Virus record (IMG/VR): IMGVR_UViG_3300017780_003104
Coordinates: 1 to 64,000 of that record
Strand: one strand, 5' to 3'
DNA: 64,000 bases
DNA from: a virus
Lineage: Duplodnaviria; Caudoviricetes
Positions 3,516 to 33,990 of the stretch are shown one piece after another; position 1 is the first letter of the stretch; every line of letters starts with the position of its first letter. The notes under the pieces are model-generated. The model was not told the DNA's origin and searched no databases. It saw only the letters and a program-made list of their open reading frames with translations. The translations under genes and the position numbers were made by a program.

Positions 3516-3518
3516 ATA

Positions 3519-4128: not shown

Positions 4129-4146
4129 ATTTTGTATTTAGCTTAA

Positions 4147-4935: not shown

Positions 4936-4937
4936 AA

Positions 4938-5807: not shown

Positions 5808-5825
5808 ATGTATAATTACTCGACA

Positions 5826-7559: not shown

Positions 7560-7591
7560 ATATTAGTATATTTAACAACCAGCCGTCCAAC

Positions 7592-7657: not shown

Positions 7658-7675
7658 GTCTATTATATTTAGGTA

Positions 7676-10534: not shown

Positions 10535-10541
10535 TCAATTA

Positions 10542-10548
10542 TATTTAG
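10542..10548 (-). promoter_or_regulatory. Late promoter CTAAATA (952-aa fibre gene)
   Basis: 7 nt before ATG 10534. Confidence 0.7.
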
Positions 10549-10551
10549 TGT

Positions 10552-11061
10552 TTAGGGTAATATTGTCAAAGTGAATTTTAGGCTATTATCAGTTTTAGAT
10601 GGATATTTAGTTCCGACTCTAACTCCAGAATAGTATAAATCACGTAATATGAAATCATTTTTATATAATATACTTTTAAAAATATTATCAATTTCATCTC
10701 TCGATATTGGAAAATGTTTTGTTTGGTGAAATTGTAATAGTGCATCATGGACTAATGATGCTAATCGGGTGTCTTCAAAATCTGGGGTACCCCACCATAC
10801 ACCCCACCATCTCTTTGGAGTACAACCATCCCAAGTATAATCTTTAGATATTATAATAGAATATTGAGTTATCTTCAACCAAACCTTACCATTTTTATCT
10901 GAAAAAATAATTAAACAATTTCTAGAAATGAATGGAGTTGTGAAAAATAGTTCTATATCCTGTAAGGTTTTAAACCTATATGTATACCCACCATCAAGTG
11001 GGACCAATTCTTTATATTGGACATTTTTATCAAATGTTGGTAATACGTCTAGATTGTTCAT
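10552..11061 (-). CDS. DUF1353-like protein
   Basis: YTWDGCTP...ASLVHDALLQ...EIDNIF motifs characteristic of DUF1353. Confidence 0.7.
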   Translation of the reverse strand: MNNLDVLPTFDKNVQYKELVPLDGGYTYRFKTLQDIELFFTTPFISRNCLIIFSDKNGKVWLKITQYSIIISKDYTWDGCTPKRWWGVWWGTPDFEDTRLASLVHDALLQFHQTKHFPISRDEIDNIFKSILYKNDFILRDLYYSGVRVGTKYPSKTDNSLKFTLTILP

Positions 11062-11062
11062 A

Positions 11063-12214
11063 TTATCTTACAAACATTTGAATAGGATCATAACTACCAA
11101 AACCACCAGATCCTTCCATGAGCATGGTTTCTAAGCGTTCTTTATCAGCATTACCTTCAGCTAATACTGCATCCCCATTGAGAGTTCCACCACCCAATAG
11201 GGTAGTTCCAGTTATTTTAGTAAGAATTCTACCCCACATTATCTTAGACAATGCTGTGGCATATTCCAATACCCATTTCTCCTTTATAATATCCCTCAGA
11301 GGTCTTTCAACATAACATTCTAAAACTCCAACAAAACTTGATGTCTCCTTGGGTTGTGGATAAAATCTTAAATATTGGGTTCTATTATCGAAATGTATAT
11401 CTCTCCTGATGGCTAATAATTTTTCACGGGTATCTTGCCAATCTTTAACAACATGCCAAGATAATAAATCAAACCCAAAGTTACCCATAGCATAACTATA
11501 AAATGTTTGTTGCGCCAATGTTTGCTCCATTGAAAATAAACTCGTTATACCACTACTAGATCCTTCTTCAAAGTCTACAACATCTATAACTTTTCTATAA
11601 TCCATAATATCATAATCGAACATGTTATTAATTTTATTAACATTTTCAACTTGCTCGCATTGCATAGTAAATGGTTTCATAGGGGAAATGCGAAACAATC
11701 CACTCAAAGATACATCAAATGCTGTTAATTGAGTAAAAGAGTTCTCATCTAAAATCTGCAATGTAGATATCCCATCCGATGGTATTGACGCAGATAATGC
11801 ACTTGAACTTAAAAAATAGTTATATGGTATATCTGACAACGATACGTATAAATTTTCTCTAAATTTTAGTTCAAAATCTGGATTTGGAACCGTTGAAGTA
11901 TTTAATTTTTGAGATAGTGTAAACCCTGTATGAGCGGCAGTATATAAATAATCTAATCTAATTCCTCTATCTCTTTCATATATATCAGATGAAAATATTA
12001 GATTCTCCTTTGTATATCCAGCATACTTGGTGAAAAATTCACATGACATGGATATGGCATCATATAATTGATCTGGGTGAATCTCAACATTAATCATAGG
12101 ATGACCCAACATCCTAAGAATTCTTTGTCCCAATTCTTGAAAGCATTCAATTTTGGAATTTAAATTAGTGGACATAAACGCCGATACTGGCGTTATTGTG
12201 CAAAGGTCTGACAT
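11063..12214 (-). CDS. gp13: Neck protein (gp13-like)
   Basis: ILRMLGHPMINVEI..DQLYDAI; WVLEYATALSKIMWGRILTK; TLLGGGTLNGD; ERLE. Confidence 0.92.
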   Translation of the reverse strand: MSDLCTITPVSAFMSTNLNSKIECFQELGQRILRMLGHPMINVEIHPDQLYDAISMSCEFFTKYAGYTKENLIFSSDIYERDRGIRLDYLYTAAHTGFTLSQKLNTSTVPNPDFELKFRENLYVSLSDIPYNYFLSSSALSASIPSDGISTLQILDENSFTQLTAFDVSLSGLFRISPMKPFTMQCEQVENVNKINNMFDYDIMDYRKVIDVVDFEEGSSSGITSLFSMEQTLAQQTFYSYAMGNFGFDLLSWHVVKDWQDTREKLLAIRRDIHFDNRTQYLRFYPQPKETSSFVGVLECYVERPLRDIIKEKWVLEYATALSKIMWGRILTKITGTTLLGGGTLNGDAVLAEGNADKERLETMLMEGSGGFGSYDPIQMFVR

Positions 12215-12219
12215 AATTA

Positions 12220-12237
12220 TATTTAGTTCATTAAATA
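12220..12237. promoter_or_regulatory. Back-to-back divergent late promoters CTAAATA(-) and TTAAATA(+)
   Basis: Each 5 nt before ATG 12214(-) and 12243(+). Confidence 0.8.
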
Positions 12238-12242
12238 ATAAT

Positions 12243-12638
12243 ATGCCATTTGAAAGTAATACTGGATCTATATATTATGAATTATCTTGTGGAATTCCAT
12301 CAGATGTGGGTGTTGATATAGATTCGAATGTGTTCACCGGATATTATCACCTATCCGCAAATGATTTTATACTATGGGGTCAAAGCACTCACTACGTTCA
12401 CATATCATCAAATAAAGGTAGCTCTCCATATTATTTGGAATGTGATGTCCCCAGTGATGCTGGATTAAACTTACAATCAAATGCTGGAACCCATTATTAT
12501 TACAATTCAGCCTTTAACTGTGTGAGCTTCTGTGACCCAGTATATAGAAACTTACAAGATGTTATGTATATACTGCTTCTAAATGGGGATGTCTTATATT
12601 ACGATGGAAATTTACTGACATGGACGCCAGTTGTATGA
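12243..12638 (+). CDS. Hypothetical late protein with internal duplication
   Basis: Start at ATG 12243, 5 nt after TTAAATA; SNTGSIYYELSCGIPSDVG vs SNKGSSPYYLECDVPSDAG duplication. Confidence 0.65.
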   Translation: MPFESNTGSIYYELSCGIPSDVGVDIDSNVFTGYYHLSANDFILWGQSTHYVHISSNKGSSPYYLECDVPSDAGLNLQSNAGTHYYYNSAFNCVSFCDPVYRNLQDVMYILLLNGDVLYYDGNLLTWTPVV

Positions 12639-12646
12639 ACGAATAA

Positions 12647-12653
12647 CTAAATA
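12647..12653 (+). promoter_or_regulatory. Late promoter CTAAATA (LRR gene)
   Basis: 5 nt before ATG 12659. Confidence 0.8.
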
Positions 12654-12658
12654 AACAT

Positions 12659-13762
12659 ATGGCAAACCTTGAAATTACAACATCATCTCAAACCGTAAAC
12701 AACCAGATTTTATCTAGCTTAATCGGACCTAATGGCGGAATCGAAACTATGTTAACTTCTACTGAGAGAAGAACACTATCATCATATAATGATGGTGTGG
12801 GGGTAGGGTTTACTAGAGTTATTCAAACAGATCTACCGGGAATTATATGGAATTTGGTTTCATCTGATGTAACATTAGATGCATCGTGGATAGGACTTCC
12901 ATACACTGTTGATCCAGATGGTGATGTTATTGTCAGTATGCAGCTTGCCGACTTTACAGGAACAGTTCCAGATGCGAATGTTCTCGGGGTCGCTAACGGA
13001 ACACTTAGACTTGGAGACGGCAGAACCGCCAATGGGAACAGCGTGGTTAGTCAGCCGCCATCGACGCTGACGCTTATCGCGGATGCTTCAAATGTGGTGA
13101 CGGGGTATCCTGATACCGCTATCGCTGCTAACTGGAGGCTAAATCAAACCACGCTCAAAGGGTTATCTCTTGGCTCGGGGGTGATTACGATAGGAGCTAA
13201 TGCGTTCTCGGGATGCACAGGACTTACTGGCGATTTGGTCATACCTGACAGCGTAACGACTATTGGAACTAATGCATTTTACCAATGCACAGGGATCACT
13301 GGACGCCTAATTCTAGGAAAATCAGTCACTACGATTGAATACGCTGCGTTCCAGTATAATAACTGGACTGGACCACTGATCTTACCAGACTCTTTGACAG
13401 TGATAAATGGGGCAGTATTCAATAACTGCGCTGGGTTCACTGGCGATCTTGTCATCCCCCCAAATTTCACTTCGTTTGGTGCAGGCAAGACGTTCCAAAA
13501 CTGCACTGGTTTTAATGGATCTCTCTACCTACCAGCCTCGCTGACCACCGCGCTAGTGGTAAAAGCCAATACCTTTGGTGGATGCACTGGATTTACTAGG
13601 ATCTATGCCGCTTGCAACGCGAGTGCAATAACCACTGGAGCATTCACAACCCTTACGGGCGTCTCAACGATCTACTATAAGGAAGGCACTACTGGTTGGG
13701 GAGCGTCCTTTGATGGTAAAACTACCGCTGTTTGGACAAGCTGGCCCGATCCAATGCCATGA
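12659..13762 (+). CDS. BspA-type leucine-rich repeat (LRR_5) protein
   Basis: Repeats of LVIPDSVTTIGTNAFYQCTGITG / SGVITIGANAFSGCTGLTG. Confidence 0.92.
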   Translation: MANLEITTSSQTVNNQILSSLIGPNGGIETMLTSTERRTLSSYNDGVGVGFTRVIQTDLPGIIWNLVSSDVTLDASWIGLPYTVDPDGDVIVSMQLADFTGTVPDANVLGVANGTLRLGDGRTANGNSVVSQPPSTLTLIADASNVVTGYPDTAIAANWRLNQTTLKGLSLGSGVITIGANAFSGCTGLTGDLVIPDSVTTIGTNAFYQCTGITGRLILGKSVTTIEYAAFQYNNWTGPLILPDSLTVINGAVFNNCAGFTGDLVIPPNFTSFGAGKTFQNCTGFNGSLYLPASLTTALVVKANTFGGCTGFTRIYAACNASAITTGAFTTLTGVSTIYYKEGTTGWGASFDGKTTAVWTSWPDPMP

Positions 13763-14304
13763 GTTTAATTTCTCTCAAGACTGACACAATCAAGCATTCC
13801 TGTGGGGAGTGTATATTGTGCTGCGTCTATCCTGAAATCAGTGATCCATTGATAGGGGGCAAACCTTTTGGAACTATGTGTAAAAATTGCACTGGAAATA
13901 GCTGTGCCATTTATACAACTCGCCCGCAGGTTTGCCGCAACTTTGAGTGCCTTTGGAGATTTGGGCTAGTCAAGACCTCACCACTTGAATCAAAAGTAGT
14001 TTGGGGTATGGATTGGGACGAAAAGAATCAAGAAGTGATAGTGTTTGCTCAATGCGAAGATGCTGGAGCATTTGTTTCTAGTATACCTCTATTAATGGAG
14101 TCGAATAGATTTTTGTCTTCTGATATTAACGGCAAAAGGGTAGGCTCAGTAGTCGTCAGATCGTCTTCCCTTGTCGCTGAATTACGCCGACTTGATGACT
14201 TCAAAGTTGGGCTTAGTTTATGTCAGGTTTTAAATGGAATACCCCAAACACAAGTTGTCAAGTCTGAGGTATTTATGCAACGTCAAACTAGTGAAAATTT
14301 ATGA
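13759..14304 (+). CDS. YkgJ-like CxxCxxCC cysteine-cluster (Zn/Fe-chelating) protein
   Basis: CGECILCC...CKNC...CAIYTTRPQVCRNFECLW; ATGA overlap with LRR stop. Confidence 0.85.
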   Translation: MSLISLKTDTIKHSCGECILCCVYPEISDPLIGGKPFGTMCKNCTGNSCAIYTTRPQVCRNFECLWRFGLVKTSPLESKVVWGMDWDEKNQEVIVFAQCEDAGAFVSSIPLLMESNRFLSSDINGKRVGSVVVRSSSLVAELRRLDDFKVGLSLCQVLNGIPQTQVVKSEVFMQRQTSENL

Positions 14305-15524
14305 GACTTAAAGGAGCAGGAAATTTAGTTGTTCGATCAATTCAGTTGAACGATACAGATACATCGCTAACTCATGCTATTGAGGTAGTCGTAGTCTCTG
14401 GTGGGGTGTCATCCTATGATACAATATCAGATGGTTATTATGAAATTTTCACGGGGACGACATACTATAACGGTGGTGACATTCTTGTGGAAGGAATGGG
14501 TAATTTTGAGATTTTAAATTTAACCCCAAACGTTGCGACGGTTTCCACAATCGGAGAAATTACACGACACACAAGCGGGATTTTAAATGTTGTAGTTAAA
14601 AATAATTTCATCAGTATTCCACTATCTATTAATTTAACCGACAAAAACGACGGATCATCTACCCCTAGAAGTTTAATATCTACAGTTGTTGGATCTCTAG
14701 CAGAACATTGCCAAGGACAAATTGACAGTAGGATAGACAATACTATGACTAAAGGAGTAAACGGTCTTGTCTATTCCACTCAAAATCACACCACCTCGAC
14801 ATACACTCGCAATTCCTCCCTTTGGTGTTCAGATGTGAACCTTACATGCATTAGCCCGTGGAACAGTAATGAAGCGAACAAAAAAGCAGGAACTCTAGTT
14901 ACCCCTCGTCATATCCTTGGTGCAGCACATTATGAGGTAAATGTTAATAATATTATCCGATTTGTGGAAACGGGAGGAACCGTTCATACCAGAACAATAG
15001 TTGGGAAGAGAACACACCCCAATTATACCCCATATTCTCCAGATTTAACTATTTACACTTTGGATTCTGACCTTCCTCCAGAGATAACTCCTTGTAAGGT
15101 TATGCCTTCTGATTGGGCTGATTATTTAGTGAATAACCCCGACACTCGCCCACCCGCATTAGGATTAGACCAAGAAGAAAAGGCATTGATAATGGACTTT
15201 TATGGGGTGGGGACCGGGGCCAATTTTCAATACCCAATAGATTCTGATCGTCTTATATTTTCAGAAGAGCTTGTGGGTGGAGATTCTGGAAACCCTGCAT
15301 TTTTTATAATAGGGGGAGAGTTAGTTCTGATAACCGTATGGACTTTTGGTGGAGAAGGGTCGGGAACATACGTTTCGCGCTTTTTAAATGATCTAAACCA
15401 AATGATAGTTGATTCTGATGCTCAGTATGGAATATCAACAATAGGCAATGTTACTTGGCCAAATGCTGGTGGTCACTATCAACTCAAGATTGCTGATCTT
15501 TCAACATTCCCTAATTATTCTTAA
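14301..15524 (+). CDS. Trypsin-like serine protease with N-terminal Ig-like domain
   Basis: Catalytic triad context GTLVTPRHILGAAH (His), PDL (Asp), GGDSGNP (Ser); NVATVSTIGEIT Big_2-like segment. Confidence 0.8.
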   Translation: MRLKGAGNLVVRSIQLNDTDTSLTHAIEVVVVSGGVSSYDTISDGYYEIFTGTTYYNGGDILVEGMGNFEILNLTPNVATVSTIGEITRHTSGILNVVVKNNFISIPLSINLTDKNDGSSTPRSLISTVVGSLAEHCQGQIDSRIDNTMTKGVNGLVYSTQNHTTSTYTRNSSLWCSDVNLTCISPWNSNEANKKAGTLVTPRHILGAAHYEVNVNNIIRFVETGGTVHTRTIVGKRTHPNYTPYSPDLTIYTLDSDLPPEITPCKVMPSDWADYLVNNPDTRPPALGLDQEEKALIMDFYGVGTGANFQYPIDSDRLIFSEELVGGDSGNPAFFIIGGELVLITVWTFGGEGSGTYVSRFLNDLNQMIVDSDAQYGISTIGNVTWPNAGGHYQLKIADLSTFPNYS

Positions 15525-23261: not shown

Positions 23262-24026
23262 TTACAGCTTCGAACATAGTATTTTTCTCGTTTCCTCAAT
23301 TCCTTGTCCTAATCCTAAAAACATATAATCTAACTTCGGAGGTATTCCAATATAATTAGAGGTTGATGAATGGAGAATATTAATCCTTGGTTCCGGTAAA
23401 ATCATTTTAGCAATATCTGATAGTTTGTATTTCTCAGTATAACAGCAATCGACCCCCTTATCAAGAGGGTTATTTTCAATATAATGGACGACAATCTTTA
23501 AAAAATCGGTCATATATATAAAATCCATATACCTATCATTATCTATGATCAAATCTCCCCCCTCTAAAAATTTATGAATACAGGTTTTTATAAATCGTGT
23601 ATTCAACTCATTTTCATCAAACACACCATATATTTTCAAACTGTAAAAATTATCAATGTTTCCAATATACTCAGAAATTAATTTTTTACTTCTTCCATAA
23701 AAGTTTAATCCAGAAGTAATGTCTTCCGCACCGGACCCAAAAGTAATCAGTTTTGTAAAATGTTCTCTATTATTGTATAGGTTGAAGAACATTGACAAAT
23801 TATTGATCAATATATCACTATCATCCTCTTTCATTCTACTTCCACCAACAACAGCACTATGAATAATCACATCATATTTTTTACCTTCGAAAAATTTATC
23901 AACATCGGAAGAATCTAAAAGATTACATATCTCTCTAGTTACTAAGTCAACCTCATATAAATGTTTTATTTTTGAGTGTATGGCTTTTCCCACATAACCA
24001 TTAGCCCCAGTTATTAATATTTTCAT
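23262..24026 (-). CDS. NAD-dependent epimerase/reductase (extended SDR)
   Basis: ILITGANGYVG, YGRSK, RYMDFIY. Confidence 0.9.
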   Translation of the reverse strand: MKILITGANGYVGKAIHSKIKHLYEVDLVTREICNLLDSSDVDKFFEGKKYDVIIHSAVVGGSRMKEDDSDILINNLSMFFNLYNNREHFTKLITFGSGAEDITSGLNFYGRSKKLISEYIGNIDNFYSLKIYGVFDENELNTRFIKTCIHKFLEGGDLIIDNDRYMDFIYMTDFLKIVVHYIENNPLDKGVDCCYTEKYKLSDIAKMILPEPRINILHSSTSNYIGIPPKLDYMFLGLGQGIEETRKILCSKL

Positions 24027-24553
24027 TTATATATATCTGGAAATTCCACTAATATGGTGCTCTTATTATCGGTTCGATATAACGCTTTTTTATAACTCGG
24101 GAACACATCTTCTGGTGTTTTTAATTCTATGATATCGATGGTTTTACACATCGATCTAAAAGCATCTGTGAAATTTCCTTTGTGTTGATCTTGCGGATCA
24201 ACTGGAATTTCACTACCAACCGCTACTCGAATAATAGCCTTGGGATTACATCTACCATCTGACATTAATGTGAATTTATCTAAATGATTTACTATCTGAT
24301 CAGTTCCCATTAGTAGAAAATTCCATCTCGGAATTATAGAAATTGGAATAAATCCATTAATGGCTAGTCCATTCACGACCCCACATTGTAAATATTCGAC
24401 AACTGGAAATTCTATTTTTTTAGAATCTGGAACACCAAGTAGAGAATCATACATGCCAGTCCCGCCATATTTTACAGCCTGACCAATAAAAATTGTATCG
24501 GGATGATTTGCTAACATCATCATCGATCTTTCGATTTCTTCAAAATAATTCAT
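24023..24553 (-). CDS. TPP-dependent enzyme E1-beta-like subunit (pyrimidine-binding domain only)
   Basis: IFIGQAV, EFPVVE..Q.G...GLAING..PI, DQIVNH, PQDQH; 176 aa, no transketolase C-terminal domain. Confidence 0.85.
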   Translation of the reverse strand: MNYFEEIERSMMMLANHPDTIFIGQAVKYGGTGMYDSLLGVPDSKKIEFPVVEYLQCGVVNGLAINGFIPISIIPRWNFLLMGTDQIVNHLDKFTLMSDGRCNPKAIIRVAVGSEIPVDPQDQHKGNFTDAFRSMCKTIDIIELKTPEDVFPSYKKALYRTDNKSTILVEFPDIYK

Positions 24554-24555
24554 AC

Positions 24556-25206
24556 TTAAAATTGCACTCTTTTTCCGGCTCCCGCATGTGGGTATTTGGT
24601 GTTATCGTATTCATAATACCACAAGTTATCCTGTTTGTAAATCCCTTTTTCCGACATTGTTTTTAGAAACATATCGACATCATCTATAAAATAGGGGATT
24701 GTTCGATTCCATGTTTCGTCGGTGGGGGTCATAACGGATTTATTATTACATTCGACAATATAATTAATCGGCAAGTTATTATTTTTGGCGTATTTATATG
24801 CTTCGTGAAATGCTCCGGTTTCAGCAGACATATCTCCAACCCAACACCAAACTTTATTATTTGTTTGCTTGAGATTTTCACCTAGAGCTAATCCAGCCGC
24901 AATGGATGGTATTCCTCCAACAATAGAACTACATATGAATTTATATTCTGGTAGATTCATAACCATTGATTTACCTTTAAGTATTTCACTTTTCAATAAA
25001 TTTTCGGGAATTCCTTTCAATAAAGCTTGATAATGATTCCTCCAAGTGCAACAAACCCAATCATTGGCATTATTGATATCATTAAAAATTTCCATCATAT
25101 GTGATTCATTTCCATTATATAAATGAATAGGTGCTCTGATTTGTTTATCGTCAAATAAATCACCTATTTCATTTTCAAACTGAATCAATTTATCTAATGT
25201 TACCAT
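24556..25206 (-). CDS. TPP-dependent enzyme E1-alpha-like subunit (short)
   Basis: PIHLYNGNE, WRNHYQAL.KG, SSIVGG, TPP motif GDMSAETGAFHE...ECNN. Confidence 0.88.
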   Translation of the reverse strand: MVTLDKLIQFENEIGDLFDDKQIRAPIHLYNGNESHMMEIFNDINNANDWVCCTWRNHYQALLKGIPENLLKSEILKGKSMVMNLPEYKFICSSIVGGIPSIAAGLALGENLKQTNNKVWCWVGDMSAETGAFHEAYKYAKNNNLPINYIVECNNKSVMTPTDETWNRTIPYFIDDVDMFLKTMSEKGIYKQDNLWYYEYDNTKYPHAGAGKRVQF

Positions 25207-26183
25207 ATAAATTTATTTTTATAAAATTCAACAATACTTTCTATTTCAATATCAAAATTTTGTTTAGGGGACCATCCTAGATTTCTCAATTTAGAATCAT
25301 TTAATGCATATCTAACGTCTTGTCCGGGTCTATTGTAAGAAAAATCAACATGATTGGAGATATCGGTAATACCATAACACTTCAAAACCTTTTCAATAGT
25401 TTCAATGTTGCTTTGTTCATATCCACCACATATATTGTATACGCCATGGTTTATTCCTTGTTCTACAATTGTAACAATTGCGTCGGCAGTATCTTGAGCG
25501 TGTAACCAATTTCTTACAGAATTTCCCCCATTGTGGAGTGGTATTTTCTTACCAATATTCACATATTTACACGCCTTCGGTATAAGTTTTTCAACATATT
25601 GTCCATTCCCATAGTTATTAGTGGGTCGAATAATGACATATGGTATATCATATGTTCTATTCCAAGCCAATATCAACATATCAGCAGCAGCTTTAGTGGC
25701 AGAATAGGGATTACTAGGTTTTAAGATATCATCTTCTGAATGTTCACCCTCGATAATATCGCCATAAACTTCATCTGTGCTGAACTGTATAAGAACTGGT
25801 TTTTTAGATGATTCTTGTCTATAATTTTTAAGTAACTCTAAAATATTATGAATCCCATTTACATTAGAATGTATGAAATCTTCGCTATTTGCTATGGAAT
25901 TTCCGACATGTGTTTCAGCGGCAGTATTAATAATATAATCACAATCATATAAAAATTTCAAATCATTAATGTCACAATGAACAAATGAAAAATTCTCATA
26001 TTTATTAAATTCTTCCAATAATTCATCATTGGCTGCATATGTGATTTTGTCAACACCTTTAACAAACCAACCCTTTTCGAGAGCGGTTCTTGTCACATAC
26101 GAACCTATAAATCCCAAACATCCTGTTATATAGACTATTTTTTTCATATTTATCTTATTTACCAGATTGTTTATAGTAGTCAA
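25200..26183 (-). CDS. rmlB: NDP-glucose 4,6-dehydratase (RmlB-like)
   Basis: ITGCLGFIGS, DKITYA, AAETHV.NSI, FSTDEVYG, PSNPYSATKAAADML, RPTNNYG..QY.EKLIP. Confidence 0.92.
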   Translation of the reverse strand: MTTINNLVNKINMKKIVYITGCLGFIGSYVTRTALEKGWFVKGVDKITYAANDELLEEFNKYENFSFVHCDINDLKFLYDCDYIINTAAETHVGNSIANSEDFIHSNVNGIHNILELLKNYRQESSKKPVLIQFSTDEVYGDIIEGEHSEDDILKPSNPYSATKAAADMLILAWNRTYDIPYVIIRPTNNYGNGQYVEKLIPKACKYVNIGKKIPLHNGGNSVRNWLHAQDTADAIVTIVEQGINHGVYNICGGYEQSNIETIEKVLKCYGITDISNHVDFSYNRPGQDVRYALNDSKLRNLGWSPKQNFDIEIESIVEFYKNKFIW

Positions 26184-27084
26184 CGAGACGTTGTATCACG
26201 GAATTAACGTCGTGCTTTATTTCGAATCCGTAAGATTGTAGCTTTGTGGTATCCAAATAAGAATGTCTGACTTGCACTATGCTGTGAAATTTTGTTGGTT
26301 CGATATGATCGATTATAGAACTAGATTTAGAATAATCAATAGCTTTATTAATAATATCTATAAATCTATAAGGTGTGCCGCTCCCTATATTAATAATCTC
26401 GTTTGTTGGTGCCTTATCTAAACATATCTTTATAGCATCACATACATCATCCACATATATATAATCACGTAACACCTCACCGCCATAGTATAATGGTAGT
26501 GAGTTATTATTAACAGCTTCTCTAATCAAGAATTGTAGAGCATTCTTCTTATTCGAGATCTTATTATCCCCCTCACCTATCACGTTTGCCAATCTAAATA
26601 TTCTATACTTGATGTTAAAAGTCTGACAGAATGATACTAATAATTGTTCTGCACATAATTTTGTAATTGAGTAGAATCCAGTAGGATTACATTTGGACGT
26701 ATCTTCTTTAAAAGGTATTTCATTGTTTTGACCGTAAACAAACCATGAGCTAACAAAATTAAACACGAAATCGTTGGTATCTTTGTGTTGTTTAATATAT
26801 TCCAACACCTCGACAAGTTTTACGAGATTTGTATTAATATCCTTTTTCAGATCAGTATGGATATTATAATTGTCTACTGTGCTTATAAAATATAATATAT
26901 TATTACTTTTCGAAGCATTATCATCCCTATCTATTTTCACTACCACATCATCATATAGTTCGCAAAAACGACCACCTATAAATCCGGTCCCACCGTATAC
27001 TGATATTTTATTGATCATAATGTTTGGGATTGAAGGGTTGGGTTGATAGCCCTCGACAAATAGTTGACATTTGAATTTCCACAA
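26155..27084 (-). CDS. NAD-dependent epimerase/reductase (extended SDR)
   Basis: VYGGTGFIGG, SSWFVYG, YSITK, RLANVIG, RDYIYVDDV; real start probably an internal ATG near MINKISVYGG. Confidence 0.88.
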   Translation of the reverse strand: MWKFKCQLFVEGYQPNPSIPNIMINKISVYGGTGFIGGRFCELYDDVVVKIDRDDNASKSNNILYFISTVDNYNIHTDLKKDINTNLVKLVEVLEYIKQHKDTNDFVFNFVSSWFVYGQNNEIPFKEDTSKCNPTGFYSITKLCAEQLLVSFCQTFNIKYRIFRLANVIGEGDNKISNKKNALQFLIREAVNNNSLPLYYGGEVLRDYIYVDDVCDAIKICLDKAPTNEIINIGSGTPYRFIDIINKAIDYSKSSSIIDHIEPTKFHSIVQVRHSYLDTTKLQSYGFEIKHDVNSVIQRLVDYYKQSGK

Positions 27085-27794
27085 CAGAATAAAAAATCAG
27101 TCTTCGATAATAAAAATGATTCAATTATAACGTCCTCACCTATTTTATATTTCGAAACGTCGTTTCTGTAATGTAAAGGTCTATCGTTGTCGCTCTTAAT
27201 ACTCTCATATGTAACCACTTTATCACCGAATACCACTTTCAACATGTTATATCTACTATATTCGTCAGATGCACAATATATAATATCATGGGATGCTGCT
27301 TTGTCTTTTATGATTTGGAGATATTCAGTTATACCCTTTTTGTCTGGGTGGTCGGTTCCCCTAAAATGCACTCCAAGAACTCGTTTACCTATAAAGTTTT
27401 CATTCACGAACGTATCTATTTTTTCCTGTACATGTGGTTGAAGTCTAATAAAATTTGAGATAATATTGGAGAATTCAACTCTCCGAGAAGCGATAAGTTC
27501 TGGTGTCGGATTAACCATATATATATCCCTAAATTCACTGTCTGGAACGTCAATGATACTATCCACCACTTTCCCAATTTCTTTGGGCGAAGGATACGTA
27601 TTAGTGTGGGGTTGTTGGAAGTAATATTCCCAAACATTTAACGTGTTGGTTATATTAGAATCTTGATATTGACACCTCCCAACGAAATCGATATAATAAT
27701 TATCGAGTGGATTATGCCACATGGCACGTAGAACTTGCCATATATAACCACACATTCCGCAGCTACCATCATTTTTAATAATTGTGAATTTCAT
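27015..27794 (-). CDS. O-fucosyltransferase/NodZ-like glycosyltransferase (GT23/GT68-like)
   Basis: VLGVHFRGTD, IYCASDE, VIIESFLLSKTDFLFC..SNVNY. Confidence 0.75.
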   Translation of the reverse strand: MKFTIIKNDGSCGMCGYIWQVLRAMWHNPLDNYYIDFVGRCQYQDSNITNTLNVWEYYFQQPHTNTYPSPKEIGKVVDSIIDVPDSEFRDIYMVNPTPELIASRRVEFSNIISNFIRLQPHVQEKIDTFVNENFIGKRVLGVHFRGTDHPDKKGITEYLQIIKDKAASHDIIYCASDEYSRYNMLKVVFGDKVVTYESIKSDNDRPLHYRNDVSKYKIGEDVIIESFLLSKTDFLFCCGNSNVNYLSRAINPTLQSQTL

Positions 27795-27798
27795 AAAT

Positions 27799-29397
27799 TT
27801 AAATATTGTTTGTGTAATAATGTTCTATCTCTTGTTGAGATCTAGTCATTCCATACGCCATGTGGATGGCGAATCCATTTCTCACATAGAGTGGGGAGGA
27901 TTTCTCTAAATCCATTTTCAATGTCAATTGTCCCTCATCCCAACCATCGTTGAATAATCTAAACGATTCACGCCAAAAGTCTGTCTCACAAAAGAAAAGA
28001 TTATTACAAAAATAAGGAGCATTATATTCCTCCAATCTGTAATCATGTTTTCCAAAAAATTTTTCTTTATTTTCTATAATTTTATCAGCTATGAAAATAT
28101 TATAATCTCGGGAATATCTAGCTGGGTGTAAACCCCTAACCATATAGTAATACCATGGTAGATTTCTAGTATCCCACTCAGTATCGACTTTACTTACCAT
28201 ATCCCAATATTTTTGACCACTCCATTCTGTCATCATTGCAATATTATTGTTGATATTATTGCAATTTAGACCCCACTCCCCACCATTAATACCCCCTGCC
28301 AAGAAATGGCGGTGTGCTATCTTCCTGTCATCTTCAGATAGGAAATCATCTACAAACATATCAGTGGACGGTATACCATTGGTGAATATTGGGGAAATAA
28401 CCGGATGAGAATCGCTTATGCTGCTTAGATTGTCGAGTATAAATTCCCACACATTATGACTCATTAAAATATCATCATCCATTTTACATGAGTATTTGCA
28501 AGTAGTTTTATGAGCGTGATCCACCTTTAATGGATAATGTCCACTCTCAAATAATACTAGGTCCACTTTAAATGATGGTTTATTACTAGTGAAATATTCA
28601 CTCCATAAATTAATATTTGATTCTTCGCCATATATACAGAGTTTTATGTTAGATTTATCTTTTATCTTAAAGATTTCATCAACCATTTTTGTGGTGAAAC
28701 TGAAGCGACTAATTTTAGAACAAAAAAGATTTATCTGTAACGACCCTCGACCCATTTTATCAAGTAAAGCTATATTATCTTTGAATTGCTGCCCTTTATC
28801 CCCGAAGAGATATTGTACTTCTCCCCTACCATGAAATCCAAAACAATTATTCAAATCGTATTCATAACCCGGAACCATCCCCTCAAGAGAAAATTTTACC
28901 GCTAAATCGGTAGGTGCATATTTACACCCATTTGATTCAAAATATTCTTTATGGGTTACACAAACATGCCAATCATCGTGTTCGCCATTGTGTGGTATAT
29001 CTGAACATAACTCCATAAATTTTTTACTACGCAAAGTAAATCCCCCATTACCAACATAACCACTCTCCCATGGTGCTCCTATATAATCATAATCTAAAAA
29101 TTCGTTTCTCCATAAATGAGGATTTGTAATAAATCCGTCGTCATGTATAGACAAACAGAATTCCGTATCGATGTATTGGTTGAGTCTTTTAAGCATGAAA
29201 ACGCAAGATCCGTCGTGTGTCAATTTTTCAATTTCTATGTACTCAATATCTTCGGTTATATTTGAAGGTTTTTCGTGTGCAATTAATAAAACACGGGCAA
29301 ACTTTATTTTTCGCATACTGTATTTTAACGCCTTTACCCCTAAAGATGGATCGACGCAATTCAGACACACTAATGTTATAGTGGGTAGAGATTTCAT
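27799..29397 (-). CDS. Two-domain glycosyltransferase (DUF5672 plus GT-A-like domain)
   Basis: HDDGF..NP..W..EFLDYDYIGAPW...VGNGGFTLRSKKF; second domain with KMDDD. Confidence 0.75.
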   Translation of the reverse strand: MKSLPTITLVCLNCVDPSLGVKALKYSMRKIKFARVLLIAHEKPSNITEDIEYIEIEKLTHDGSCVFMLKRLNQYIDTEFCLSIHDDGFITNPHLWRNEFLDYDYIGAPWESGYVGNGGFTLRSKKFMELCSDIPHNGEHDDWHVCVTHKEYFESNGCKYAPTDLAVKFSLEGMVPGYEYDLNNCFGFHGRGEVQYLFGDKGQQFKDNIALLDKMGRGSLQINLFCSKISRFSFTTKMVDEIFKIKDKSNIKLCIYGEESNINLWSEYFTSNKPSFKVDLVLFESGHYPLKVDHAHKTTCKYSCKMDDDILMSHNVWEFILDNLSSISDSHPVISPIFTNGIPSTDMFVDDFLSEDDRKIAHRHFLAGGINGGEWGLNCNNINNNIAMMTEWSGQKYWDMVSKVDTEWDTRNLPWYYYMVRGLHPARYSRDYNIFIADKIIENKEKFFGKHDYRLEEYNAPYFCNNLFFCETDFWRESFRLFNDGWDEGQLTLKMDLEKSSPLYVRNGFAIHMAYGMTRSQQEIEHYYTNNI

Positions 29398-29405
29398 TGT
29401 AAATA

Positions 29406-30731
29406 TTATATTGTTGGTTGTGTGAAGAAGCTATCAACGATACTGTCGATATAATCTAATTGATCATCTGTAATTACGGGACTGGTCCCCAAGAAAAAGG
29501 TATCTGTTGTGACTTTCCTAGCATTTGGGTAATCTCGCATGATCGATTCGGTGTCCATTAATCCGTCATATGCTGGCTGTAACATAATATTACCCGCAAA
29601 ATATGGTCTGGTTTGAATTTTTTTACTTTCTAAGAAGTTGACAATATCCTTTCTCTTGAAAGATGTAACATCTTTAATAGTTAGTGCAAATGCGAACCAA
29701 CTAGGATCACTATTTTCAGTGGCTTTAGGGATAATGAAATATTCTTCGTATTTTGAAAAGATATCAACCAATCGTTTATGATTATGTTTTCTTTTTTCAG
29801 AAATTGTTGGTAATTTTTTGATCTGCTCTAATCCCATTGCGGCTTGAATCTCGATTGGTTTGAGATTGTAACCAATTTCATCGTAAACGTATTTATGGTC
29901 AAAAATTTCATCTGGTAGTGATGGCAACCAATTCGAAAATCTATTTCCACATGAACCATTCTTAAGTAGCCCTGCCTTCATTCCAACACAATAACATCCC
30001 CTGCCCCACTCCCTGAAGCTTCTTATAATATTCTCATCTTGGGGGGTATTACAAGCCACAAACCCACCCTCTCCCATAGTAATATGGTGGGCGGGATAGA
30101 ATGAACAACTAGCAAATGTTCCGAAAGAACCTAGTGGCTTTCCATCATACGTAGAACCTAACGCATCACAGCAATCTTCTAGTAAGATTAGATCATATTC
30201 TTCAACAATCTCCATCAGACGATTCATGTTAGGCGGATTTCCCAGAACATGTGCAAACGTAATCACCTTCGCCCCCAATTTAGCTTGTTCTTCAACTTGA
30301 TCCAAATTCAAGTTTAATGTATCTAAATCGATATCGACAAATGCTGGGATAAACCCTACTTGAAAAATTGGGTTAAGTGTCGTTGGAAACCCAGCAATAG
30401 GTGTTATCACCTTAGTTCCTTTTGGAAGATTGTGTAATCTCTTGGATGTTAATGCAGACATCATAATTAGATTCGAACTACTACCACTATTGGTCAGTAT
30501 TCCAAAACCCTTACCAAGTAATTTTGAAAATTGGTTCTCAAATTTTAGACCCTTTTGACCAAGGACTAGCCAACCATCTAAAAGGGTTTCCACGGATGCT
30601 AGATACTCATCCTCATCAAAGACTGGTCCAGCATATTGCACCCAATCTTTCCCCGGAATCCATTTTTTATCCCTCTCCTTTTCAGAAATATATTCTCTTA
30701 CGAGATCTGCTATCTTTTCTCTGGTAGTCAT
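29406..30731 (-). CDS. ddhC: NDP-4-keto-6-deoxyglucose 3-dehydrase (DdhC/RfbH, PMP and Fe-S dependent)
   Basis: NSGSSSNL, GFPTT.NPI.Q, HVLGNP, EDCCDALGS, SFYPAHHITMGEGG (His in place of the aminotransferase Lys), WGRGCYC...C..RF, YDHKY-like DHKYVY..IGYNLK. Confidence 0.92.
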   Translation of the reverse strand: MTTREKIADLVREYISEKERDKKWIPGKDWVQYAGPVFDEDEYLASVETLLDGWLVLGQKGLKFENQFSKLLGKGFGILTNSGSSSNLIMMSALTSKRLHNLPKGTKVITPIAGFPTTLNPIFQVGFIPAFVDIDLDTLNLNLDQVEEQAKLGAKVITFAHVLGNPPNMNRLMEIVEEYDLILLEDCCDALGSTYDGKPLGSFGTFASCSFYPAHHITMGEGGFVACNTPQDENIIRSFREWGRGCYCVGMKAGLLKNGSCGNRFSNWLPSLPDEIFDHKYVYDEIGYNLKPIEIQAAMGLEQIKKLPTISEKRKHNHKRLVDIFSKYEEYFIIPKATENSDPSWFAFALTIKDVTSFKRKDIVNFLESKKIQTRPYFAGNIMLQPAYDGLMDTESIMRDYPNARKVTTDTFFLGTSPVITDDQLDYIDSIVDSFFTQPTI

Positions 30732-30746
30732 TTCGAGTATTCTACA

Positions 30747-31610
30747 CTACCCCCATTGAGTTGTCAAGTGGCAGGAATCATGAATCCCCAATCCCCAATC
30801 CCCAAGATTTGGAATATTATATTTTTTAGTATTCTCTATCACATACTGGAGTTTATAATTTTCATCAATGTTCTGAATACTATAAATGTCTTCTCTTATT
30901 TTCATCGGTATATCCCAATTCGCGTAGCTCCAGTTAAAATTATTTACTGATATATCGTAATCTCCATAGTTAATGATCCCGACACCATGTTCTAGATTAT
31001 TAACATAATCCCAAACTTTCCAATAATATTGTTTTATACCAACCCATCTCTTATCTAACCATTGTAAGTGGGCAATAAATAAAACCTCTGGGTCTATCCT
31101 TATGGATTTTCCAGCTGGTGGCATATGTGCTGAATGACTAAATGTTTTATGAAACTTGGAATTATGTATATATGAACCAATTCTATCATGATAGACCTCA
31201 TTCCAAAACGAATCCGTTCTTCTTTGATTTTTTGACGTATATTGAATCCATTGACCAGTGAAAATAGTATCGGGATATTTTACGAGAAGATTCTGTAATT
31301 GGGATTTATCGATCATCCCGTCAATATATTCATCGGTATCCAAACATATGATATGTGGTGAATATTTATATACGGTATCGAATAATTGTTGACGCATCGA
31401 TGTTTCCCATTCTCCCATATCATCAGCAGTCTTAGCTTCTATGACTTCTAATATATTATATTTTTCTTTATTGGCTTTTAGAAATTCTACCGTGTCGTCT
31501 GTAGAATTATCACTAATAAATACAAACCCATCAGCATATTTTTGCCAAATTGGTAACATTTCTTTAATCAAGAATGATTCATTCTTGGTCATTGTCATTT
31601 GAACTATCAT
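30747..31610 (-). CDS. Glycosyltransferase family 2-like
   Basis: MTKNE, DGFV..SDNSTDDT, ICLDTDE. Confidence 0.82.
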   Translation of the reverse strand: MIVQMTMTKNESFLIKEMLPIWQKYADGFVFISDNSTDDTVEFLKANKEKYNILEVIEAKTADDMGEWETSMRQQLFDTVYKYSPHIICLDTDEYIDGMIDKSQLQNLLVKYPDTIFTGQWIQYTSKNQRRTDSFWNEVYHDRIGSYIHNSKFHKTFSHSAHMPPAGKSIRIDPEVLFIAHLQWLDKRWVGIKQYYWKVWDYVNNLEHGVGIINYGDYDISVNNFNWSYANWDIPMKIREDIYSIQNIDENYKLQYVIENTKKYNIPNLGDWGLGIHDSCHLTTQWG

Positions 31611-32353
31611 ATTGTGATATCTCTAGTATCCACTTTACTCCAATCTGGAAGAATTCCCATATGTTTAGATAATTTATTAGCATCCGATATTCTCTCATCC
31701 TTTAGTGAGAACCACAATTTATCACTAATTTTTCCAATATCCGCCACCTGCATTCTATCAACGGTTGAATCTCGTTGACTCTTACCCAATACCCAATGTC
31801 TATGTTCAATTAATATATCACCTCTATATGTCAATCTATTAAATGCTGAAAATAATTGATGCATCCATTGATCTACCCAATTTATTTTAAATTCCTCCCT
31901 CATAAATCCTCCAAGCACATTAGCATATTCTCTATGACAGAATAGGTTTACTGCCAATTTGGAACCATGATACCCATCATCACAATGAACAGCTTTGATG
32001 TTGTCCGGTGGTATGTTCTCAAATTCTTCTAAAATTTTAAGATCCCAATCCGGGGTTTTGAATACCATATCATCTCCAATCATAGATATAATATCCTCTG
32101 TGGAATTTTCAACTAAAATATTCCATAGTTTACCAAGCCCTAAAAACTCATTATTATTATCAATCTTTATAATATTTAAAGACGGAATCCCCTCTGATAT
32201 TTTTATAATTTGAGATAATGTTGGATCATCTGCATCTACTCCATAATAGATATTCACATTGTTAATATCATTAACCGTGGATAAAATGGACATTAAGAGA
32301 GTGATACTATTAGATAGTCGCTCTCTGGTCGGAACTAGGATTGCAATTTTCAT
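31607..32353 (-). CDS. Glycosyltransferase family 2-like
   Basis: IAILVPTRER, GVDADD, MIGDDMVF.T..WD, IEHRH. Confidence 0.82.
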   Translation of the reverse strand: MKIAILVPTRERLSNSITLLMSILSTVNDINNVNIYYGVDADDPTLSQIIKISEGIPSLNIIKIDNNNEFLGLGKLWNILVENSTEDIISMIGDDMVFKTPDWDLKILEEFENIPPDNIKAVHCDDGYHGSKLAVNLFCHREYANVLGGFMREEFKINWVDQWMHQLFSAFNRLTYRGDILIEHRHWVLGKSQRDSTVDRMQVADIGKISDKLWFSLKDERISDANKLSKHMGILPDWSKVDTRDITI

Positions 32354-33228
32354 GGTTTGAGTTGTTTAATAATTTTTAAGGCTTCTTCTTCACTGACAAA
32401 TGGTGGTTGATTAGGATAATGTCCGTGTTTATTTTTATAAATTTCTCTACCACCCATGACATTTTTGGTCCATTGTTCGGTATCTTCAGCTATAACGGAT
32501 TGTGTAATTGCGTTTTCTTGTTCCTCCACAAGATCAAGACTATTATGTAGGTCTGCAAAATACCAAAATGGTGGGTGCATACCAGCTTTTATAATTTCAT
32601 AAGTGTGATCAACATGTTCCCACGCATTGAGATAATTCTCGTCTATTAACCCAACAGTTTCTAAAGATTTCCTACTGTAATATGAAAACATGGCTACTGT
32701 GTGTTCGTATAGATCGATTTTAATATCACCATAATCGATAGTCAATCTCGGATTGGGTTCACTTTTTTGATCGAGTAGATGTCTATTATGTAGATCGAAT
32801 TGGATATCTTGTTTTCGATTGAATGGTGATCCGGGACCATAATTAAAATGTTGAATGCCTGATACTTTAGATGCTTCAATATATTTCTCAAATACCCGAT
32901 CATCCTTAATATACATATCATCCTCAATTAAGAAGATATGATCACAACCATCACTTAAAAGTTTCTCTAGGCAAATATTTTTACATTTTCCAACCCCATA
33001 ATTAATATTATTAACTGTTGCGTCTATGTCACCACTCCACTCTAGTAAATATTTCTTGATATAAGATCGAGTATTTATCCCCACATCCCCACAGTCAACT
33101 TTACTATCCTCTGTGATGTACAGCTTATCTATTATATCACACTTCTTCAGGGAAGAAAATAACTTACTGAATGAGTCTTCTCTTGAGCATGTGATAATCC
33201 CGACTCCTATTTTTTCACCATTAATCAT
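32350..33228 (-). CDS. Glycosyltransferase family 2-like
   Basis: IGVGIITC.R, GVGKCKN, IFLIEDD, VGLIDENY.NAWEHVD. Confidence 0.85.
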   Translation of the reverse strand: MINGEKIGVGIITCSREDSFSKLFSSLKKCDIIDKLYITEDSKVDCGDVGINTRSYIKKYLLEWSGDIDATVNNINYGVGKCKNICLEKLLSDGCDHIFLIEDDMYIKDDRVFEKYIEASKVSGIQHFNYGPGSPFNRKQDIQFDLHNRHLLDQKSEPNPRLTIDYGDIKIDLYEHTVAMFSYYSRKSLETVGLIDENYLNAWEHVDHTYEIIKAGMHPPFWYFADLHNSLDLVEEQENAITQSVIAEDTEQWTKNVMGGREIYKNKHGHYPNQPPFVSEEEALKIIKQLKP

Positions 33229-33953
33229 TTTTTAAATTCGCTAATAATTTTATTAATTCTATCCTCATTTACAGTCTCTCTTTCCTGATCTTTTACCATC
33301 TGTTCAAGAACTTCTAAATTATTCGGATCTAATAGGCTATCCCCTTCAATTAGATCACCTTTATGGTCTATAAACTCACTAATAAACATCAATCTATCAT
33401 CAATAGAGGCAAAATGTTCATCGATACAAACTATTGCAGGACAATCATCGGATGGAAAAAATACATCCTGTTCCAAATTTTCCATATATTGGTCAAATAG
33501 TCCTTGAAAAACCTCATCAACCTGCTTAATATATTGAAGATCGGTATCTCTCATATTATCATTTACTATCTTTATAGCTGGGTTATACTTCAACCAAAAT
33601 ATAATATCCAAATCTCTCATCGACTCCTTGACAAAGGAAATTGTTGCTGCGGCAGTTTCATTTCCTATCTTCCCAAGAGCATTACCATGTAATGTATATG
33701 CTAAATTGTCTAAGGGGCATCTGTCATAGACGACCTTCGAATCTTTAGGATATTTTAACTGCTCCTCCATCATCCAATTCAATATTAACAACTGTGTTTC
33801 GTCGGAGGTGTTAGAAGAATGGGCTAAATTATTTTCCGTAATTACATCTCGATATGTTTTTTTAGGTGTTACATACATTGGCCAACGATTTAAGAAGGCA
33901 TTTAGTAATGTTGATTTTCCTTGCCCTGCGGTTCCACTTATAGCTATTCTCAT
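33225..33953 (-). CDS. P-loop nucleotide kinase (AAA_28/dNMP-kinase-like)
   Basis: RIAISGTAGQGKST, VVYDRCPLDNLAY, DIIF. Confidence 0.8.
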   Translation of the reverse strand: MRIAISGTAGQGKSTLLNAFLNRWPMYVTPKKTYRDVITENNLAHSSNTSDETQLLILNWMMEEQLKYPKDSKVVYDRCPLDNLAYTLHGNALGKIGNETAAATISFVKESMRDLDIIFWLKYNPAIKIVNDNMRDTDLQYIKQVDEVFQGLFDQYMENLEQDVFFPSDDCPAIVCIDEHFASIDDRLMFISEFIDHKGDLIEGDSLLDPNNLEVLEQMVKDQERETVNEDRINKIISEFKK

Positions 33954-33962: not shown

Positions 33963-33990
33963 AATTTACCATCATTTATTAGAATGTCAA
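33963..33990 (-). promoter_or_regulatory. sigma70-like early promoter TTGACA-N16-TAAATT heading the glycosylation operon
   Basis: Minus strand reading; TGG precedes the -10 box; 9 nt to ATG 33953. Confidence 0.6.

Follow-up and report, generated by a model that had tools for sequence, protein, structure and literature searches.

A stretch of 64,000 nucleotides (the window; positions 1 to 64,000 of IMG/VR record IMGVR_UViG_3300017780_003104) carries a minus-strand sugar operon. We propose, with a probability of roughly 0.6, that this operon is a phage nucleotide-sugar factory: its core would make a 3,6-dideoxyhexose with a two-carbon branch at C4, which soluble glycosyltransferases would use as donor. 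The operon comprises twelve coupled genes between 33953 and 23262, and the spacing from one gene to the next is -7 to +15 nt throughout (Table 1). It encodes an RmlB-type nucleoside diphosphate (NDP)-glucose 4,6-dehydratase, a 3-dehydrase of the RfbH/DdhC/E1 type, a pair of small thiamine-dependent subunits and two short-chain dehydrogenases/reductases (SDRs), all of which are present on the minus strand where an earlier note on this DNA had placed them. What would be new here is a minimal, phage-borne form of an E1-type sugar-branching enzyme, joined to a 3-dehydrase without its E3 partner, on a carrier that is probably deoxythymidine diphosphate (dTDP).

The thiamine pair consists of a diphosphate-binding (PP) subunit, which resembles E1-α, and a pyrimidine-binding (PYR) subunit, which resembles E1-β; the pair sits between the RmlB-type and the 254-aa SDR genes, with overlaps or gaps of 2-7 nt. 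The α subunit matches only positions 5-172 of the 300 in the PF00676 profile (the N-terminal, diphosphate-binding half), and aligns with residues 49-209 of human pyruvate dehydrogenase E1-α, including the G-D-x...N-N cofactor motif (GDM...ECNN in the phage protein versus GDG...ENN in the human one). Its C-terminal tail of ~50 residues is family-specific and well conserved (Tyr198, Tyr200, His207 and Gly209). The only Pfam family matched by the β subunit is PF02779, and no Transketolase_C domain (PF02780) was detected in it; the pair is thus as minimal as the earlier note had described. Glu53 of the β subunit aligns with the cofactor-activating Glu of E1-β, and across 120 family members Glu53, His90 and His124 each reach at least 95% conservation. 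Thiamine catalysis requires no more than a single PP and a single PYR domain; the split sulfopyruvate decarboxylase is an example. In full-length E1-β the C-terminal domain docks E1 onto the E2 core; since this domain is absent, the phage pair is more likely a stand-alone lyase or ligase than a component of a dehydrogenase complex. No YerE-type enzyme (TPP_enzyme_N, PF02776) that might carry out the branching step in place of the pair was matched in the genome.

The 3-dehydrase scores above the equivalog cut-off for RfbH (423 for NCBIfam NF011936), matches PF01041 (4e-76) and aligns over residues 4-436 with the Yersinia E1 structure 3BCX (1.9e-110). In its PAHH motif, His216 aligns with His220 of Yersinia E1 and replaces the Schiff-base Lys of aminotransferases. 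The cluster cysteines are arranged as Cys188-X57-Cys246-X-Cys248-X12-Cys261. Yersinia E1 has C-X57-C-X-C-X7-C, the same spacing except that the last loop of the phage protein is five residues longer (12 versus 7). It is by the His for Lys replacement together with the iron-sulphur (Fe-S) cysteines that E1 and SpnQ can be told apart from aminotransferases and ColD (PMC8987622). Motif and family score together confirm the assignment as DdhC/RfbH with the diagnostic His and Fe-S cysteines made in the earlier note.

The 4,6-dehydratase retains GxxGxxG, the Thr-Asp-Glu (T-D-E) triad and YSATK. Its gene probably starts with the ATG at 26147, which makes the protein 315 aa long, like its counterparts in relatives; the 327-aa version read from a TTG is probably too long. 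On rival models it scores 75 bits (cytidine diphosphate (CDP)-glucose) and 60 bits (guanosine diphosphate (GDP)-mannose). An RmlA-like glucose-1-phosphate thymidylyltransferase of 244 aa is encoded at ~84.0-84.7 kb of the same genome (TIGR01207 2.6e-74, below cut-off), so that the nucleotidyltransferase missing from the window is indeed encoded elsewhere, as had been surmised. Since the dTDP-glucose model scores far best and an RmlA-like gene is present, the route is probably dTDP-based and not CDP-based; of the two carriers that the earlier note had allowed, only dTDP is favoured. The RmlA-like gene and a gene for a RmlD-like SDR (303 aa) lie at genome positions ~83109-84751, directly before a clamp-loader (RFC-like) gene and far from the operon. 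No RmlC match was found in the genome, and a phage-encoded L-rhamnose route was therefore rejected.

The 254-aa SDR, whose gene overlaps the E1-β-like gene by 4 nt, has GxxGxxG and YGRSK motifs, and the PDB entries closest to it are those of GDP-fucose synthase and RmlD. The 287-aa SDR most likely starts at the Met at 27018, which precedes GGTGFIGG; a 309-aa TTG reading overlaps the upstream gene. Its best PDB match is uridine diphosphate-glucose 4-epimerase 4ZRM (5.5e-18). Only ~9 of 80 related loci have an orthologue with at least 60% identity, and the protein is an accessory of the core module. Both it and the RmlD-like SDR at 83 kb may channel the same intermediates towards plain deoxy sugars.

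Conservation of the pair and its neighbours

A scan of IMG/VR returned 156 loci encoding a relative of the α subunit, of which the best 80 (59-70% identity) collapsed into 63 clusters at 95% identity. The β gene directly follows the α gene in all 63, so that the pair is never broken up. Of the 63 clusters, 59 have an RmlB orthologue (54-73% identity), in most cases right upstream of the pair, and 58 have a homologue of the 254-aa SDR, in most cases right downstream. An RfbH of the Fe-S type (55-81% identity), whose His and Cys-x-Cys motifs are the same as in the phage enzyme described above, occurs within 10 kb in 40 clusters. In a further 11 it is replaced by a DegT-family protein of ~30% identity, in which the His is kept and the cysteine cluster is lost; by sequence, the best structural relatives of this substitute are E1 (8e-57) and ColD (4e-40). 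The Fe-S-less protein is also shorter (~380-394 aa). With a 3-dehydrase near the pair in 51 of the 63 clusters (40 Fe-S and 11 Fe-S-less), C3 deoxygenation is kept, and it stays tied to the pair even where the enzyme type changes. The swap to an Fe-S-less enzyme may avoid dependence on a host reductase.

Conservation of the module across 63 non-redundant relatives is independent support for a functional link between its genes. The glycosyltransferases and the 287-aa SDR differ from phage to phage among the related loci. A nucleotidyltransferase is absent from four of five complete relatives, which suggests that the core module usually starts from host NDP-glucose. In the Atlas, clusters of the minimal α subunit number 100-160 members each and are predominantly viral.

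The pair is also found in cellular genomes at 37-50% identity, with Pelagibacteraceae, SAR116, Verrucomicrobia, Chloroflexota and Omnitrophota represented among 57 loci. On a 1.3-Mb contig of Pelagibacter sp. HIMB1412, a GDP-mannose-dehydratase-like gene lies directly upstream of it, so that here too the pair comes right after a 4,6-dehydratase. In the HIMB1412 glycan locus (6993-13388) three different thiamine enzymes are encoded in a row: the minimal pair and, downstream of it, an acetolactate-synthase/YerE-like protein and a split transketolase. In a Verrucomicrobiia bin (2659-14416) the pair is part of an apparent flagellin glycosylation island, with genes for flagellin, an SDR, a nucleotidyltransferase, a GHMP kinase, the pair, a DegT aminotransferase, a B12-radical-SAM enzyme and a phosphoenolpyruvate-utilising enzyme.

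Among phage records, a protein search with the α subunit matched only eight. The cyanophages P-TIM68 and S-SM2 and the 735-kb record LR756501 were considered as carriers of the module and rejected, as no RfbH orthologue lies near their pair. The protein of P-TIM68 and S-SM2, named 'transketolase central region-containing protein' from annotation only, belongs to the same PP-plus-PYR family and also sits in phage sugar clusters (37% identity to the α and 29-37% to the β subunit). It is, however, a single fused polypeptide of 381-402 aa instead of two subunits; in its neighbourhood lie genes for a zinc alcohol dehydrogenase, a carbohydrate kinase and the heptose pathway, and, unlike in the operon described here, no RfbH orthologue occurs within 9 kb. 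The cultured cyanophage S-H68 encodes homologues of RmlB, RmlC, the 287-aa SDR, RfbH and the DUF5672 protein of the operon, and no thiamine enzyme. There, the 43%-identical homologue of the 287-aa SDR follows RmlB-RmlC, and the 35%-identical homologue of the DUF5672 protein is encoded directly after RfbH.

Proposed pathway and alternatives

From the enzyme identities, catalytic motifs, operon coupling and co-occurrence in relatives described above, a route can be drawn whose substrates, order of steps, pyruvate donor, C4 branch point, stereochemistry and final target are predictions. The RmlA-like enzyme encoded at ~84 kb would supply dTDP-glucose, which in most relatives would come from the host. 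The RmlB-type enzyme would oxidise and dehydrate it to dTDP-4-keto-6-deoxyglucose, and RfbH would then remove the C3 hydroxyl with the help of pyridoxamine phosphate (PMP) and its [2Fe-2S] cluster, using electrons from host ferredoxin or flavodoxin, as SpnQ does. The PP and PYR subunits (216 and 176 aa) would act as one thiamine enzyme that decarboxylates pyruvate and places the acetyl equivalent onto the C4 ketone. Finally, the 254-aa RmlD-like reductase would turn the acetyl branch into a 1-hydroxyethyl group to give a dTDP-linked, yersiniose-like sugar, from which about five soluble glycosyltransferases would build an oligosaccharide. Comparative genomics supports the branched-sugar donor put forward in the earlier note, whose product and target are predicted.

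The most substantial alternative keeps the acceptor and changes the chemistry: the pair might modify an NDP-keto sugar by another reaction or with another donor, for instance by moving a hydroxyacetyl group off a ketose phosphate as transketolases do, or by using a longer 2-keto acid, and so yield a different branched or chain-extended deoxy sugar. The PP-plus-PYR arrangement is also the core of transketolases, and weak secondary Pfam matches to DXP_synthase_N and TPP_enzyme_C were seen. Moreover, transketolases have been proposed for the hydroxyacetyl branches of miharamycin and amipurimycin, relatives of YerE use C4-C8 keto acids (PMC12247030, PMC9306805), and the family occurs in varied sugar contexts, from the heptose genes of cyanophages to the aminotransferase and B12-radical-SAM gene of Verrucomicrobia. 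We nevertheless consider this distinctly unlikely: the best family matches are to E1 α/β and not to transketolase, the operon contains no aldolase and no gene for making longer keto acids, and E1-type sugar-branching enzymes appear specialised for two-carbon units from pyruvate (PMC12247030).

It is less probable again that two unrelated functions share the operon, with RmlB, RfbH and an SDR making an unbranched dTDP-3,6-dideoxyhexose of the abequose, paratose or tyvelose type and the pair serving other metabolism. The S-H68 gene set, which has no thiamine enzyme, indicates that a plain deoxy-sugar route exists in phages, and the 287-aa SDR could be a 4-ketoreductase. Yet the pair is tightly coupled between RmlB and the short reductase, an arrangement that nearly all of the 63 relatives share; the 287-aa SDR, by contrast, occurs in only ~9 of 80 loci. 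The absence of the E2-docking domain makes a role in a dehydrogenase complex unlikely, and the two routes are not exclusive, as branched and unbranched sugars could both be made in this phage. We give little credence to the remaining alternative, in which RfbH is mainly a C4 aminotransferase that forms a 4-amino-4,6-dideoxy sugar without E3 while the pair acts on another intermediate. Such a reaction would fit a genome without E3, ferredoxin, flavodoxin or FNR domain and five complete relatives without Fer2, and SpnQ does show aminotransferase activity in vitro in the absence of a reductase (PMC8987622). However, the Lys to His exchange and the four cluster cysteines, kept in 40 relatives, are a dehydrase signature, and the Fe-S-less, His-keeping substitute in 11 others points to selection for deoxygenation. 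In addition, host cells normally have ferredoxin or flavodoxin systems.

Several observations weigh against the branched-sugar reading itself. The function assigned to the minimal family comes from comparative genomics, and no solved E1 is more than a distant relative of the pair (E ~4e-4). The fetched flanks of 12 of the 63 clusters, about half of them truncated loci, contain no 3-dehydrase. The RmlB-type enzyme scores below the TIGR01181 equivalog cut-off, and the nucleotide carrier is therefore not certain. None of the 57 cellular loci has an RfbH or RmlB orthologue nearby; in cells, P-TIM68 and S-SM2 the pair instead adjoins heptose, aminotransferase or B12-radical-SAM genes. Such varied neighbours imply that the acceptor of the family is not always a 3,6-dideoxy sugar, and the family is probably a general sugar-tailoring enzyme whose link to a 3,6-dideoxy acceptor would be specific to this phage clade. 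Finally, no dedicated E3 (DdhD) was detected: there is no Fer2, Flavodoxin_1 or NAD_binding_1 (FNR) match in the whole 211.7-kb genome, and Fer2 is absent from the five complete relatives as well. The absence of DdhD from the window, which the earlier note had reported, thus extends to the entire genome, and reducing power must come from the host. SpnQ functions with general ferredoxin or flavodoxin reductases, a precedent showing that a dedicated E3 partner is not obligatory (PMC8987622).

We also entertain, tentatively and at less than even odds, a broader version of the branched-sugar reading. The pair would represent a stripped-down PP-plus-PYR class of thiamine sugar-branching enzymes, widely spread among aquatic T4-like phages and among glycan islands in SAR11, SAR116 and Verrucomicrobia. 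The phages concerned would make their own yersiniose-like sugar and borrow only electrons from the host, and their soluble glycosyltransferases would decorate virion proteins or recoat the infected cell.

Operon, source genome and glycosylation target

The window makes up the first 64 kb of a virus record of 211,724 bp, which has direct terminal repeats and is rated complete. The genome contains T4-type core genes, including those for a portal protein (phrog_213, 1.9e-88), a gp43-type DNA polymerase (6.9e-185), a tail-sheath stabiliser, a UvsX-like recombinase, a gp46-like nuclease and a DnaB-like helicase. Together with the complete record and its terminal repeats, these genes justify calling the operon phage-encoded. 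The portal is at most 25-29% identical to portals of cultured phages, and querying 50,697 phage records at the DNA level with the 7.5-kb region gave only one 104-bp match, which indicates that there is no close cultured relative. An identity as a cyanophage was rejected because psbA had no match in the genome. The source is a distant, uncultured T4-like myovirus.

Genes of the operon are transcribed in the order kinase, three glycosyltransferases or glycosyltransferase-like proteins, RfbH, DUF5672 protein, NodZ/FUT8-like protein, 287-aa SDR, RmlB-type enzyme, E1-α-like subunit, E1-β-like subunit and 254-aa SDR. The kinase, which also matches PHROG phrog_2107 'thymidylate kinase' (8.8e-15), would serve in the supply of dTDP or dTTP for the sugar route. 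Besides the promoter candidate in Table 1, which ends 8 nt 5' of the RfbH ATG at 30731, a second near-consensus sigma-70-like site (33963-33990, minus strand) lies directly upstream of the kinase gene, so that both sites end 8-9 nt short of start codons. The sigma-70 scan as a whole was not above shuffled sequence (98 sites versus 86.8 expected), and the promoter candidates are suggestive only; the late-promoter box TATAAATA was uninformative (13 sites versus 13 expected).

Table 1. Genes and promoter candidate of the sugar operon (positions in the window)
Feature	Position	Strand	Evidence
Short RmlD/GDP-fucose-synthase-like SDR reductase, 254 aa	23262..24026	-	PF01370 2.2e-15; RmlD_sub_bind 7.3e-12
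Minimal E1-β-like pyrimidine-binding (PYR) domain subunit, 176 aa	24023..24553	-	PF02779 2.7e-6; NF006667 1.9e-10
Minimal E1-α-like thiamine-diphosphate (PP) domain subunit, 216 aa	24556..25206	-	PF00676 2.4e-14; TIGR03182 6.8e-23
RmlB-type NDP-glucose 4,6-dehydratase, 315 aa	25200..26147	-	TIGR01181 5.3e-89, 298.5 bits (cut-off 365)
Extended SDR, 287 aa, epimerase or 4-ketoreductase	26155..27018	-	GGTGFIGG, YSITK; without the dehydratase Asp-Glu pair
NodZ/FUT8/O-FucT-like protein, 259 aa	27015..27794	-	Pfam NodZ 1.4e-3, FUT8_N_cat 1.6e-3, both below cut-offs
Two-domain DUF5672 protein, 532 aa, probable glycosyltransferase	27799..29397	-	PF18922 3e-13, above cut-off, residues 73-189
RfbH/DdhC/E1-type PMP-/[2Fe-2S]-dependent NDP-4-keto-6-deoxyhexose 3-dehydrase, 441 aa	29406..30731	-	NF011936 479.7 bits
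Sigma-70-like promoter candidate before the 3-dehydrase gene	30739..30767	-	TTGACA-N17-TAGAAT, 11/12 matches
Probable GT2-like glycosyltransferase, 287 aa, weakly supported	30747..31610	-	Glyco_tranf_2_4 27.0 bits versus cut-off 27.5
GT2-type glycosyltransferase, 248 aa	31607..32353	-	PHROG phrog_14945 6.9e-28; Pfam Glycos_transf_2 4e-4 (below cut-off)
Glycosyltransferase, 292 aa	32350..33228	-	phrog_2456 3.4e-21, phrog_1579 1.9e-17
Thymidylate-kinase-like P-loop kinase, 242 aa; first operon gene	33225..33953	-	Pfam AAA_28 2.6e-11, dNK 9e-5

The several glycosyltransferases that the earlier note had assigned to 23262-30731 are present in the operon, but the better supported ones lie upstream of that region, at 30747-33228, so that the operon reaches 33953; within 23262-30731 the only two candidates are the DUF5672 protein and the weak NodZ/FUT8-like protein. 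The 292-aa enzyme has no Pfam match and no predicted membrane segment. The 287-aa GT2-like protein scores 20.3 bits with Glycos_transf_2 and has no PHROG match; 14 of 80 related loci have an orthologue of it (49-74% identity). Atlas neighbours of the DUF5672 protein have DUF5672 fused to GT2 or GT9 domains. Those of the NodZ/FUT8-like protein, by Atlas features, fall in fucosyltransferase-like clusters (scores 0.95-0.97), which makes it, as a lead only, a candidate deoxy-sugar transferase. Elsewhere in the window, a 412-aa glycosyltransferase (phrog_7162, 8.5e-23) is encoded on the plus strand at 46421-47659, between the gp46-like nuclease and DNA polymerase genes. A 577-aa protein (5826-7559, minus strand) consists of a ~19-residue unit, with SNFLGY at its end, repeated ~25 times in tandem, and is probably a beta-helical fibre or spike protein; open reading frames (ORFs) overlapping it in other frames, one of them scoring 11 'membrane' segments, were dismissed as artefacts of the repeat.

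As to what the sugar would be attached to, virion or other phage proteins come first, at slightly less than even odds, and host envelope glycans reached through host machinery are a rather doubtful second. Another target is improbable, and DNA is the least likely. Known pyrimidine sugar hypermodifications begin with a thymidylate-synthase homologue (bioRxiv 10.1101/2025.06.16.659550). Thymidylate synthase (PF00303) had no match in the genome, and DNA was rated unlikely because there is no such homologue to make a hydroxylated pyrimidine. Phage-encoded assembly of the O-antigen type was rejected, since a simple hydropathy scan found no Wzx/Wzy/WecA-type multi-pass membrane proteins for glycan assembly in the genome and predicts all operon proteins to be soluble. 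Outside the window, three ORFs with long poly-threonine runs (65620-66483, 69392-70591 and 70595-71773) adjoin a 288-aa ORF in the region 64741-71773. A tie between the module and such mucin-like proteins was considered and rejected, because none of five complete relatives carrying the sugar module has runs of ten Thr codons.

Sugars of the branched 3,6-dideoxy kind are uncommon antigenic determinants, known to date from a few bacterial O-antigens and from antibiotics. With the module present in at least 63 distinct phage lineages, environmental phages would, if the proposal is true, be a large unexplored reservoir of rare-sugar chemistry. It would also provide a tangible example, open to testing, of a complex sugar donor made by a virus itself, with a bearing on how virions hide and how host surfaces are changed. 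For biocatalysis, a thiamine enzyme able to form tertiary alcohols with just two small domains would be a new and compact carboligase. The exchange of Fe-S-dependent for Fe-S-less 3-dehydratases in sister phages, in turn, may show how viruses cope with dependence on a host redox partner.

Relation to known sugar-branching systems

At the deoxygenation step, phage RfbH resembles SpnQ of the spinosyn forosamine pathway in its dTDP-type context and in having no dedicated E3; SpnQ acts on a 2,6-dideoxy substrate, unlike the one proposed for the phage. The Fe-S-less substitute of the 11 relatives resembles ColD of the colitose pathway, in which the His is kept and the Fe-S cysteines are absent, although the substrate of ColD is derived from GDP-mannose. 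Unlike the phage module, neither pathway has a thiamine-dependent branching step.

For that step, the closest known enzymes, compared by description, appear to be the full-length E1 α/β sugar-branching enzymes of actinomycete antibiotics; limited literature searches found no paper on the minimal phage form of the pair. Enzymes of this type from the aldgamycin, kibdelomycin, avilamycin, paulomycin and related pathways are assigned the addition of a pyruvate-derived C2 unit at C3 or C4 (PMC12247030, PMC4425429, PMC4753412). The reaction has been demonstrated in vitro for KbDH on sugar analogues (PMC12247030) and proposed for Pau11/12 and AviB1/B2 (PMC4425429, PMC4753412), and ~120 clusters are predicted to encode E1-type sugar-branching enzymes (PMC12247030, PMC4425429, PMC4753412). 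Like the phage pair, AviB1/B2, Pau11/12 and KbDH are two-gene E1-α/β enzymes in a deoxysugar cluster that begins with a dTDP-glucose-type 4,6-dehydratase, and in the actinomycete clusters a ketoreductase able to reduce the acetyl branch follows, as the SDR follows the pair in the phage. The analogy with AviB1/AviB2 drawn in the earlier note therefore holds for two-carbon branching by E1 α/β enzymes in the literature (PMC12247030, PMC4425429), but not for size, in which the phage pair falls far short of AviB1/AviB2: Pau11 and Pau12 have 325 and 345 aa (PMC4425429), the phage subunits 216 and 176 aa. Unlike its full-length counterparts, the phage α subunit stops soon after the cofactor motif and continues in the family-specific tail, and the β subunit is without their Transketolase_C domain. 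The phage pair is, moreover, coupled to the C3-deoxygenating RfbH, unlike the AviB, Pau and KbDH systems, and occurs in phages and small-genome aquatic bacteria instead of antibiotic clusters.

In its proposed overall logic, the phage module corresponds to the yersiniose A pathway of Yersinia pseudotuberculosis (DdhA-D, YerE and YerF), where a 4,6-dehydratase and a 3-dehydrase are likewise followed by thiamine-dependent addition at C4 and reduction with NAD(P)H; YerE acts on CDP-4-keto-3,6-dideoxyglucose, and YerF then reduces the branch (PMC9306805). The parts differ. Yersinia uses DdhB and DdhA on CDP, the phage RmlB and RmlA types on what is probably dTDP, and Yersinia has E3/DdhD, whereas the phage genome has none. 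YerE is an acetolactate-synthase-like flavoprotein and the putative phage brancher is E1-like, of a different thiamine superfamily. A YerE-type enzyme was taken to be a single polypeptide of ~560-580 aa with TPP_enzyme_N, M and C domains, and the operon proteins match E1_dh and Transket_pyr, not these domains. The erwiniose and caryophyllose routes, which are related to that of yersiniose A, follow the same chemical logic as that proposed for the phage.

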